Program-made: the position numbers and the translations under genes
The notes under the pieces: generated by a model
Seen by the model: the letters and a program-made list of their open reading frames with translations, nothing else
The model's database searches: none
What the model was told of the DNA's origin: nothing
Assembly: GCA_021513715.1 (NCBI GenBank)
Contig: CP084167.1
Location: 320,001 to 384,000 of the forward strand
Direction: 5' to 3'
DNA: 64,000 nucleotides
From: Candidatus Heimdallarchaeum endolithica
GTDB lineage: Archaea > Asgardarchaeota > Heimdallarchaeia > Heimdallarchaeales > Heimdallarchaeaceae
Shown: positions 48,296-51,936 of the stretch, one piece after another
How the letters are laid out: the number at the start of each line of letters is the position of its first letter
How positions within the stretch are numbered: the first letter of the stretch is position 1

Positions 48296-49746
48296 ATGGA
48301 GAAGATAGTCAAAACTTTGAAAGTTAGAATAAAGAATGAAGTTTTGACGAGGAGAAAAAAGGAAAGATTAAGGAGAATAACAGGGAGAGACACAAGGATA
48401 ATAGAAAAATATGTAAAAATTATTCATCACAACAGAAGAAGACTGTGTATGAAAACAAAGAAAGGAGAAATAAGAGTACATAAAGGGAAGTTAGATGAAC
48501 TAACATTAACAACATCAAGGATAAAAAAAGTAGAAGAGCGAAGAGAGACTGTTCCTCATGACCTTAAAAAGATGTTTCCCTATTGTTCTCACGATGAGTT
48601 TCAAGAGTGCAGAGATATAGCAGTACAACTGTACGAGCAAGGATATAGACCTGAAGCCACTCGTCCTCCAAAAAAGAGACCCCGAAGACAACTAATCAAT
48701 AAAAAAAGATTTATTCTTACTAATTTACCAAAAGAGAAAAATAACTCTATTTCTCGTTGGTGGGTAGGAATAAGAGACTCATTAGACACGTGGAAAAGAA
48801 AGACCCCCTACCATCAGAAGTTGTGGTTACCTTTAGAGATGAGCACTTTTCATCAAAAAGAATTGAAAAAAGGACAAGTGAAAAGCCTGGAATTAAGATA
48901 TAAACGTTCTACACGTGAGTGGTGGGTGTATTTTCAATTAGAAGTTCTTCCTCCTTCTTCTTTTCTAAGCGATAATTCCTCTTCTTCTTCTCTTCCTCCA
49001 GCTGTGCTGGGGATAGATCTAGGGATAAACATTCCTGCTGCAGGAGTGTTACTAACTCCCAAAAAGAAATTAACTATTAAAGAAATAAAATTTTGGCATA
49101 CCAAACAGTGGAATAGAATTAATCACAGATATAAACTCAAGTTTTCCCGTCTTCAGAGGAAAGCAGCTTTAAATGACCAGTCGGGTAAAAAACACCAAAT
49201 TTATCGTTTCCTTAGTCTTCTCAGAAGAAGATATAGAAACGTTAAACGGTCCTATATTCACCAATTTATAAGCGACGTTGTGCGGACGATAGAGACCTAT
49301 GCAAAAGTGTATGACCTTTTCGTCGTCGTAGGTTACCCCAAAAATGTTAGAAAAAAAAAGGAAAAGGTAAAAGTACTCGTTATTATCGTAGAAAACTTTA
49401 CCAGTGGAATTATGCTCATATTCTTAGTCTTCTCCGTCGAGCATTGATATTAAGAGGTTTTGAATCTCACCGCATTCTCACTTTAGACGAAAGAGGAACA
49501 TCTTCTCATTGTTCCCGTTGTGGAAAAGAAGTTTCTCGTCCCGTCAGAGGATTAATACACTGTCCCTTTTGTAACTATACTTACCACTCTGATTTAACAG
49601 GAGCTAGAAATATTGCTCGTAAATTCCTTAGTCATCTTTTTCGTCCCCGTACTACAACTATTACTGATTATTTTACTGGTCAAAAGTTTAGTCTTACGCA
49701 TTATACTGTTTGCCGAGGACTCAGCCATTGGTTGCAGTCCCAGTAG
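48296..49746 (+). CDS. tnpB: TnpB-like RNA-guided nuclease with rearranged RuvC-II, split by a -1 frameshift at A9G (49351-49360)
   Basis: RuvC-I VLGIDLG, VVVGYP, LDERGTS, Zn finger CSRC/CPFC, RuvC-III HSDLTGARNI; the -1 frame reads KGKGKSTRYYRRKLYQWNY... into the second ORF; ~483 aa when joined. Confidence 0.85.
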
Positions 49747-49978
49747 ACAAAAAGAAAGATAATTTCTCTATTTTAGGGATAATTCTTTCTTTTTTGTCTC
49801 TCGTGGAGTGAAGAGAACATCTTCTCTTCTTTATGATTCCCCCGATTCGTGTATGACGTCTGCCTTAATCCTTCTTCTTTCATTGTATGTTAGGATTAAG
49901 TTCTCAAGAAACTAATAATTCTCTATCTTTGTTTTTTTCTTGAAAGACTAAGTTCGACAAACTTCGCAAAAAGTAAAT
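49747..49978 (+). ncRNA. Candidate omegaRNA scaffold
   Basis: Four consecutive stems between the tnpB stop and the element end (49745-49799, 49801-49836, 49864-49900, 49904-49943); position matches known TnpB right-end RNAs. Confidence 0.55.
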
Positions 49979-51936
49979 CATGTCTGTATCATTTGAAAAG
50001 GGGTCACATCCATATTGAATTTCTAATCCATCAATAAGGTCGTCATTGTCTGTATCATTAAACATAGGATCAGTTGTCAAGTCTACTTCTACTGAATCAA
50101 TTAAACCATCATCATCGCTATCAGGATTATTAGGAAAAGTACCAAGAGTAAATTCTTCGAAGTTTGACAAACCATCTCCATCTAAATCGTCATTAGCATC
50201 ATTTATTGTTATATCTAAACCAACTTCAAGTTCGTAATAATCAGGAATAGAATCTTTATCGTAATCAGAATAATTCGCAAAAATATCAATAGAACCTGAC
50301 TCACCATCAATTAAATGGAAAGCTGATCCATTATTATCACTCCAAAAATTACCGACAGATTCTAAATTACTATACCAGCTATTATTTAATCCATCATCAT
50401 AAGCTTGAATAGACCCATTATTGTTTAAAACAAAAACATTTTCCAGTATCGTATTATTATTACTTAAAGAAACAGAGATACCATATTTACTATTATTGAA
50501 TATGACGTTCCTAATTATAGAATTATTATTACAGCTACTTAGTCTAATTCCATAAGATTGACCAAAATTAACTATGTTGTTTTCAAACAATGAAAAATCT
50601 GATTTAATAAACCACATAGAATAATCTTTCGAATAAGATAGTAAATTGTTTTTAATTTCAAGATAATCAGAACTAGAAATAAAGATAGAGTAATTATTAA
50701 TGGAAAAAACATTGTTAAAAATTTTACAATTTGTTGACTTAAAACTTCTAGAGCTGTTCTTGTGGTATTTATTATTGAATTGTCATTAATAGAAAAATTA
50801 TTACACGCACTTAGGCTAATTGCTGAATTAATAATGCCTTTTTCTAAATCGCTATTATCAATTGAATTGTTTGATATTGTGACATTATTCCCTGTATATA
50901 CTCTAATTGAATAATCATGAATATTAGAGAACGTATTATTAGAAATACTACTGTTATAGATTGATTAGCACTCAATTGCAGTTTTAGAAGTAGAAATATT
51001 GTTGGTATTGCATAAAACATTCATTGATCTTTGGAAATTGATTGCGATAGAAGAAACATTAAATATTTTATTTCGAAGAATATTTGAAAAACTACCATTA
51101 TTAACAGAAATAGCAAATTGCGATAGTGAGTGAAATTCATTATCGTTTATCTCGTTGTACCATCCATCTACTACTTCAAAACCAACAAACCCTCCACTTA
51201 TTTTGTTTTTTGTAATATTATTATAATGACTAGTAAATCTAGCAAAAATAGCTTTATAATTGAAATTTGAGATCGTATTGTTTGTTATTACTGAATAATT
51301 GTTATAGAGTGTAATTACTGACGTATATTTGCTTCCTTTAAAGTTTATTAGGGTTGAGTCAGTTATCTTAAGTGAAGCTCCTTCTTCTGCTTCGATGTAC
51401 CATGAATAATCAGAAAAAGCTTCTATTTTAGAATTAATTATTGTAAGATTACCATTATTTTTAACTATAAAATTAGCTTTGTCATCTTCATTACCATTCA
51501 TCTCTATTACACAATTTTCTAATACTAAAGTCCCTCCACTTTCTATTGAAACTGAATCATTAATGTAAATTACTTCAGAATTAATAATTGTTTCTTGAGA
51601 AATTGTCCACACCCCGCTACTAGGAGGGGGAAAATCTCCGCTTCCGGAAGCTATAACAGGAAGTAAGTTAGAATTTAAACCACCCCCAAAAATAAAACAA
51701 ACTAATAAAACTGTTGTCAAAGTAGTTAATTTTTTCTTTGAGATGGTTTTTTTTGGTTTATTAATCATATTCTTGTTTATTTTCACCCTCTATATTAATA
51801 TTTTCTAATAATTAAATATATAAAAAATAGAACTTTTCAATAAGTTTACTTTTTCTTTAAAAAAGAATAGTTTTATAAGTTTGAATTACTATAATCCTAT
51901 TCACTATAGATAAAAAAATAACTAAAGGGGATCAAA

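Follow-up and report, generated by a model that had tools for sequence, protein, structure and literature searches.

A probable TnpB omegaRNA with a predicted CCAT target motif at the right end of an inverted-repeat element of Candidatus Heimdallarchaeum endolithica

Does the structured DNA that follows a tnpB gene in an Asgard archaeon specify a guide RNA and, if so, where would its guide begin and which target-adjacent motif (TAM) would its protein read? The question is raised by a 64,000-nucleotide stretch of the Candidatus Heimdallarchaeum endolithica genome (GenBank assembly GCA_021513715.1, contig CP084167.1, positions 320,001 to 384,000 of the forward strand; hereafter the window, to which plain coordinates refer), which carries a 1.8 kb insert (48155-49982, with CATG counted on both sides) whose sole gene is tnpB and whose right end is the region at issue. 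An original prediction had placed four stems after the stop codon, a guide beyond a terminal CATG and a TAM including or abutting CATG. As judged here from comparative sequence evidence, 49717-49981 probably encodes a TnpB omegaRNA scaffold of about 264 nt, with the guide running from 49982 onward and a TAM that would be CCAT for proteins with Asp at residue 100 and RCAT (R, purine) for those with Asn.

The insert is bounded by inverted arms of 31 nt (48155-48185 and 49952-49982) that are 87% complementary, and interrupts a host gene for a surface protein with D-T-D-x-D-G-L repeats. An empty allele with a single CATG, joining 48154 to 49979, is present in four independent metagenomes, and the variable flank that follows the fixed right end matches this empty donor site; the proposal of a right-end TnpB omegaRNA that takes its guide from the flank and targets the empty site is borne out to this extent. 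Twelve full copies of the element are present in the genome and form subfamily A, whose members are 92-97% alike, and subfamily B, at about 80% to A; there are also a third family, C, and fragments. At least 10 further copies are found in the sister genome, Ca. Heimdallarchaeum aukensis, and homologues occur in 20 of the 61 genomes searched, the source genome included. Large indels separate the lineages of the element, and its left and right arms vary in concert from one lineage to the next.

All four stems lie where they had been placed: stem 1 at 49745-49758/49785-49799 (arms of 14 and 15 nt, with one bulged base), stem 2 at 49810-17/49822-29, stem 3 at 49864-72/49892-900 and stem 4 at 49904-11/49936-43. 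The minimum free energy fold of 49745-50000 contains all of them (z = -3.33; 1 of 200 shuffles equally stable), and 49745-49981 scores z = -4.18, with the neighbouring open reading frame (ORF) at +0.5 and the flank at +2.1. Across 21 copies from two species, the pairs of stem P1, stem 2, the pseudoknot, the closing stem and stems 3 and 4 are kept in 97.2% of cells, against 45-57% in slid controls; two-sided changes fill 33 cells, against 9.6 in shuffles (0/500 reach this value), and are present in each of stems 2, 3 and 4, so that the covariation anticipated for the stems is found. Stem 1 was seen by eye in the copies and left out of the formal count, the alignment being ragged there. Searches of Rfam returned chance matches only, with no fitting family. 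Real as they are, the four stems are peripheral; the core of the scaffold, made of the 5′ hairpin H0, P1 (with one U-C mismatch in the window copy) and a pseudoknot, had been missed.

The pseudoknot links the loop of P1 to the end of the element, the loop hexamer being the reverse complement of the terminal six bases in nearly all loci. It reads AUGAUU:AAUCAU in A and B, AUGAGU:ACUCAU in relatives and in a 383-bp mini-element, and AUAAGU:ACUUAU in locus L025, which amounts to two separate compensatory changes (from AUGAGU:ACUCAU to the A/B form and to the L025 form), L028 and L032 showing U-G wobbles. In this genome, two canonical TnpB lineages that are unrelated but have like ends carry UCAAC:GUUGA and UGGUU:AACCA (the latter in L014), each in the loop of the first stem and each with the last U unpaired, as in ISDra2, where positions -6 to -2 are paired and -1 is free (PMC10097598); pseudoknots of this sort are described for omegaRNAs in general (PMC10690162). 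Moreover, the terminal bases of the right end are nearly invariant while the mirror positions of the left end vary, a pattern that would follow from constraint on RNA pairing rather than on the symmetry of the ends. A second conserved AUGA was rejected as the pseudoknot partner, being unchanged in L025; this tetramer (49854-49857) and a GAGUCC-like motif (49950-49955, AAGUUC here) are kept in all lineages.

The 5′ start of the scaffold is likely H0, a hairpin over the last tnpB codons that is retained in every lineage, because the gene-less derivatives known from relatives and from this genome amount to a natural deletion series: they retain precisely the promoter and the segment from H0 to the end, with the TATA-like box joined to H0 at a fixed 21 nt. 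In the full-length element, this box likely serves as promoter of both tnpB and a read-through RNA. The original prediction had called a scaffold that spans the right terminal inverted repeat (TIR) unusual; the predicted scaffold does run through it, and overlap of this kind was already reported for Fanzors (PMC10530073; 10.1101/2023.08.09.552727).

Where the scaffold gives way to the guide depends on the target-site core. The base after the right CAT is G in 33, A in 11, C in 2 and T in 2 of 48 elements, and G in 4/12 of a further clade; it equals the fourth base on the left in 34/48 and differs in 14/48. By contrast, AT is found on both sides in nearly all 48 elements, as a dinucleotide core shared by the two junctions, and removal of a mini-element at the start of a Y1 tnpA gene restores an in-frame site in which CAT is followed by C. 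CATG as a 4-bp target duplication is ruled out by the unequal fourth bases together with this empty site; to judge from the junctions, CATG is a preferred target and AT (or CAT) the shared core. The variable base after the right CAT, the CAT-C site and the pseudoknot all place the end of the scaffold at U49981. The guide would then most likely begin with G49982, a single base ahead of the T49983 from which the original prediction, right about the origin in the flank, had counted. The predicted guide is GUCUGUAUCAUUUGAAAAGG.

The TAM of the original prediction, CATG, is at odds with the genome itself: a genome-wide search with the guide found CAT plus guide only at the element's own right junction (AATCAT followed by GTCTG), so that the TAM must distinguish CCAT from TCAT, and a motif limited to CATG would make that junction a target. 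The predicted motif ends in CAT and includes the preceding base. T precedes the left CAT in 1/58 of the elements ending in TCAT, versus a background of 34%, and TCAT stands on the left in 10/10 members of a family that ends in TTGAT; the bias is one-sided and non-palindromic. Ending in TCAT, the right end would avoid self-cutting, and the same logic, a TAM unlike the right junction with TnpB filtering the sites, has been shown experimentally for ISXfa1, of the IS607 family (10.1101/2023.08.09.552727).

The base before the left CAT also follows residue 100 of TnpB: in a first set of loci, Asp goes with C in 12/12 and Asn with a purine in 18/19, and three loci added afterwards agree, bringing the counts to 13/13 and 20/21. 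On a tree from which its codon was left out, the residue changes state five times or more. By motif, S98-H-D100-E-F-Q103 matches D75-K-F77-A-L-Q80 (ISDra2 numbering), D100 falling on F77 and Q103 on Q80. In ISDra2, TAM position -4 is contacted by F77 and the A at -2 is read by Q80; the match independently favours C-C-A-T at -4 to -1 and the register in which the guide starts with G. A TAM of four bases ending in AT is thus predicted, CCAT for Asp100 and RCAT for Asn100 proteins, and hence 5′-CCAT for the window protein, which has Asp100. CCATG as a universal target was rejected, as it holds only for Asp100 proteins. Six guide-only mini-elements of genome G002 (L217, L230, L239, L243, L244 and L245) have a purine before the left CAT in 6/6, in agreement with the Asn100-type TnpBs of that genome, which is suggestive of TAM selection in trans.

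Several observations weigh against this interpretation. The minus strand and the A-rich left end also reach z -2.7 each, so the folding score by itself is not decisive; the covariation count is inflated by relatedness, most two-sided changes tracing to one A/B lineage split, and the pseudoknot is invariant within A/B and has one mismatch in family C. As for the TAM, the strict phylogenetic sign test has only three independent pairs on well-supported branches, all of them concordant (p = 0.25), and is underpowered, since three pairs cannot reach significance. L057 combines an Asn protein with a C site, one truncated A-type remnant and one mini-element have a TCAT flank, three left junctions read GAT or AAT, and a clade in relatives typified by L026 has the apparent left boundary TGTCAT, contrary to the non-T rule, although this boundary is uncertain. 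Finally, the equivalence with F77 and Q80 is by motif, without superposition, and MAFFT did not align the N-terminal halves across lineages.

Three other explanations bear on these points. The G of CATG could be position -1 of the scaffold, with the guide starting at T49983 and a TAM ending in CATG or CATN; roughly two thirds of the copies do have G after the right CAT, against 12% in the background, the ISXfa1 scaffold takes up one fixed flank base, Fanzor1 RNAs include the target-site duplication (TSD), and a terminal A-U pair could join the pseudoknot and move -1 to the G. That register is unlikely nonetheless: the fourth base is A, C or T in one third of the copies and in 8/12 of another clade, the two other lineages have an unpaired last U, the residue motif puts A at TAM -2, and the self-targeting described above applies to a TAM of CATG alone. 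A stronger departure, with the structure acting only as a terminator or, at the DNA level, as part of the element's end and no guide RNA produced, could appeal to the U-rich tracts after stems 1 and 2, one listed terminator-like site and the fair folding of the minus strand; it would leave unexplained a long-range pseudoknot that covaries with the very last bases, right-end bases that are conserved where their left-end mirrors vary, gene-less derivatives that keep promoter and whole structure, and intact catalytic sites, and we consider it very improbable.

Alternatively, the omegaRNA could be genuine and the flank bias be due to the transposase or the end sequences, the TAM then being broader or different. 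The inner end motifs of A and B differ, possibly implying different movers, mini-elements that encode no protein avoid T too, and the independent contrasts number just three to five. Against this, L051 has B-type ends and belongs to the B clade, yet carries Asp100 and a C flank; the pairing of residue and flank recurs in relatives with quite different ends; and families C and D share an inner end motif but have CCAT and TCAT flanks, respectively. Such a bias therefore seems a poor explanation, decidedly less plausible than reading by TnpB of a TAM set by residue 100.

Coordinates of the element, its predicted RNA and the interrupted host gene in the window
Feature	Position	Strand	Basis or remark
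Host gene, 3′ piece	47051..48157	-	carries a stop at 48119 that is absent from empty alleles
Predicted TAM CCAT, host-derived left flank; abuts the protospacer at the empty site	48154..48157	+	predicted
Left end / left inverted repeat, two TTTTGCGAA units	48158..48185	+	arm comparison
TATA-like box TTTTTATA	48226..48235	+	present in every lineage; putative function
tnpB, rearranged RuvC-II (D242, G347, alternative E402, D436, C4 zinc finger)	48296..49746	+	frameshifted in this copy
Asp100 codon, REC helix S-H-D-E-F-Q-E-C	48593..48595	+	residue-flank comparison
Hairpin H0, over last tnpB codons	49717..49740	+	gene-less derivatives
Stem 1, variable hairpin	49745..49799	+	fold
Stem P1 (49801-06 with 49840-45), enclosing stem 2 (49810-49829) and a pseudoknot strand	49801..49845	+	covariation
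Pseudoknot 5′ strand AUGAUU	49833..49838	+	complementarity
Three-way domain: closing stem GUCU (49858-61):AGAC (49945-48), stem 3 (49864-49900), stem 4 (49904-49943)	49858..49948	+	
Right inverted repeat, predicted to supply the linker and 3′ portion of the scaffold	49952..49979	+	arm comparison
Pseudoknot 3′ strand AAUCAU; U49981 the predicted last scaffold base	49976..49981	+	complementarity; ISDra2 analogy (PMC10097598)
Predicted guide, host flank from G, 16-20 nt	49982..50001	+	predicted
Host gene, 5′ piece	49982..50782	-	

The tnpB product belongs to Pfam PF07282, and fold comparison places it nearest to Cas12f/TnpB (8h1j, Z 16.8, rmsd 6.2, 335 residues aligned). In 17 homologues, D242, D436 and the four Cys are invariant, as are G347, which replaces the RuvC-II Glu, and the alternative E402; the RuvC-I motif is DLG. 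Gly or Pro at RuvC-II, combined with an alternative Glu ahead of the zinc finger, defines the Fanzor/TnpB2 catalytic type (PMC10530073), to which G347 and E402 assign this protein. One ORF with all RuvC motifs is found in 9/12 copies of the genome, some of which start late. In the window copy, the frame is shifted by the net loss of 7 nt at an A9 run near 49354 (49346-49359), a possible slippage site or a homopolymer assembly error. Its RNA would be loaded only if the A9 run allows slippage or if an intact Asp100 copy, such as the one at G000 about 1,138.7-1,140.6 kb, supplies the protein in trans, so that the window locus, expressed alone, may yield no ribonucleoprotein; that the copy gives no working complex at all is a substantial, if lesser, possibility.

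Taken in order, a transcript would start at the internal TATA-like box, cross tnpB and the right end and continue into the flank, to be processed and loaded by TnpB; the last bases of the scaffold, whose covariation is seen in the copies, would pair into the P1 loop as a TnpB/Cas12 pseudoknot, with U49981 at -1 if the geometry is that of ISDra2. The complex would then cut the empty allele, in which CCAT is followed by GTCTGTATC..., and the cut would favour copying of the element back from the filled sister chromosome. Repair copying after a TnpB cut is established for IS607 elements. For IS200/IS605, too, cut and repair from the filled chromosome is established (10.1101/2023.03.14.532601).

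The element itself would be non-autonomous, with inverted ends and an AT (CAT) core, and mobilised in trans. Neither the loci examined nor the scans revealed a linked transposase. The genome has a single Y1 gene, inside a classical IS200/IS605 element with other ends; this element (L017, G000 923.9-926.0 kb), the only one of its type with a Y1 gene, has a mini-element just past the start codon of tnpA, which has probably disabled the transposase. Neither this genome nor the sister genome yielded an IS607 TnpA of the helix-turn-helix/resolvase type over the cut-off, and those of relatives have other (left) ends. Among DDE enzymes, the multi-copy DDE_Tnp_1 families of the genome have other ends and IS630-type enzymes gave no match, single-copy or diverged enzymes remaining as candidates; there is also one tyrosine integrase. 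Two stand-alone short serine recombinases, with a resolvase domain and a partial recombinase domain (G000 316.7-317.6 kb, L214, and 405.4-406.2 kb), have weak counterparts across the family and are candidates for the trans-acting mover; no element ends were found at either. Scans with the end motif, which covered 30 relatives as well as this and the sister genome, returned only tnpB elements and mini-elements, and those of metagenomes and viruses almost only distant TnpBs.

What the ends themselves suggest is serine-type recombination, because of the 2-bp core, the loose terminal bases and the binding-like motifs 7-8 nt inside the ends; we give it about an even chance. A DDE enzyme making a 2-bp duplication is a good deal less likely, some other enzyme less likely still, and a Y1 transposase least of all. 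TIRs are present, and the junctions are compatible with an AT duplication of 2 bp but not with one of 4 bp; the first inner bases of the left end vary freely. A left-end hairpin is not found, and the ends of the Y1 element do not match. A bolder and rather improbable proposal is that TnpB, in cis or in trans, helps to pick the insertion site for an unlinked, undescribed AT-core recombinase that serves several unrelated lineages of TnpB, with their guide-only mini-elements, in Asgard archaea, the match of residue and flank then being more than after-the-fact retention.

In its workings, the system resembles IS607 and IS200/IS605 TnpB systems, yet it fails defining features of both. With IS607 (ISXfa1, 10.1101/2023.08.09.552727; CboIStron, PMC10690162) it shares a dinucleotide-type core at both junctions, a right-end omegaRNA with a pseudoknot, a TAM drawn from the upstream flank and unlike the right junction, and a TnpB proposed as insertion-site filter; IS607 differs in its GG core, lack of inverted repeats and linked serine TnpA, where the core here is AT and the ends are inverted. 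With IS200/IS605 (ISDra2, PMC10097598; omegaRNA-bearing PATEs, 10.1101/2023.03.14.532601) it has in common a scaffold over the tnpB 3′ end, the -6 to -2 pseudoknot, TCAN-like right-end bases, a TAM ending in AT and gene-less, guide-bearing derivatives, whereas inverted ends, the lack of a subterminal hairpin at the left end, the G bias after the cut, the rearranged RuvC-II and a longer scaffold downstream of the stop codon set it apart.

Fanzors in TIR transposons (PMC10530073; PMC10432273; 10.1101/2023.08.09.552727) are alike in having Gly for the RuvC-II Glu, the alternative Glu before the zinc finger, non-autonomous TIR elements, an RNA that overlaps the TIR and ORF-less ghost elements; the present system is archaeal, has DLG instead of DPG at RuvC-I, a pseudoknot (absent in SpuFz1) and no strict 4-bp TSD, and Fanzor ancestry is not claimed. 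TIR-bounded and solo TnpBs have been catalogued in prokaryotes, and these DDE-associated or solo proteins (DDE-1 to DDE-6, RIIr clades; PMC10691335) are similar as prokaryotic TnpBs between symmetric ends, with solo copies moved in trans and a Gly-type rearranged catalytic site; here, by contrast, no DDE gene is linked in the loci examined and the outermost bases are not conserved as inverted repeats. Guide-bearing mini-elements are likewise already known (10.1101/2023.03.14.532601). A literature search found nothing on Asgard or Heimdallarchaeum TnpBs with TIRs or on guide-only miniature inverted-repeat elements, TnpB goes unmentioned in the H. endolithica genome paper (PMC8813620), and we have not found described the RNA of this clade, the combination of AT core and TIR, the reciprocal partition of TAMs or the single-residue switch.

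The predicted scaffold borders, guide start, TAM and Asp/Asn100 switch provide a sharp and cheap test for a clade of Asgard TnpBs whose catalytic site is of the Fanzor type. If true, they would constitute population-scale evidence that the TAM of TnpB shapes where copies persist, hitherto suggested mainly for IS607; two co-resident families would split target space, neither cutting its own end; and the change from Asp100 (CCAT) to Asn100 (RCAT) would offer a natural rule for TAM engineering. The elements also point to a further transposase for inverted-repeat, AT-core elements in a lineage close to eukaryotes.

The proposed partition of targets would involve family D, with canonical-site TnpBs at G000 2,688k, 2,833k and 3,217k (L015) and a guide-only mini-element of 356 bp at 396k, 700k, 2,204k, 2,658k, 2,846k and 2,940k; its TTGAT right end and TCAT left flank are the mirror image of families A-C. 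The 383-bp gene-less element mentioned above (L016, G000 1,237,052-1,237,434, and 16 further sites; also in the sister genome) has ends of the same type, a TTTATATA box and a full ancestral-type scaffold with the AUGAGU:ACUCAU pseudoknot. Its cognate TnpB type is missing from this genome, and proteins of A, B or C may for that reason serve this element. L014 (G000 597,976-599,493), a third, unrelated TnpB lineage with ends of the same type, has TGAT on the left and CCAT on the right, and L006 (G000 3,321.7-3,323.5 kb), a chimera with a B-type left end and Asn100 joined to an A-type right end, is a product of recombination between copies. In relatives, the L026-type clade (L026, L027, L029-L034, L043, L044, L046, L047) has a conserved 300-nt leader and a variable Q103, and often lies behind one same host gene, yet its right flanks, and thus its guides, differ; a domesticated locus is possible.

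In the surroundings of the insert, the 3′ piece of the host gene has an in-frame TAG at 48119, where the empty alleles of the four metagenomes read G; the stop is either later than the insertion or an assembly error. The window further contains an IS481-type transposase gene with about 25 copies in the genome (45844-46782) and a broken member of a 33-copy DDE_Tnp_1 family (54414-55248).

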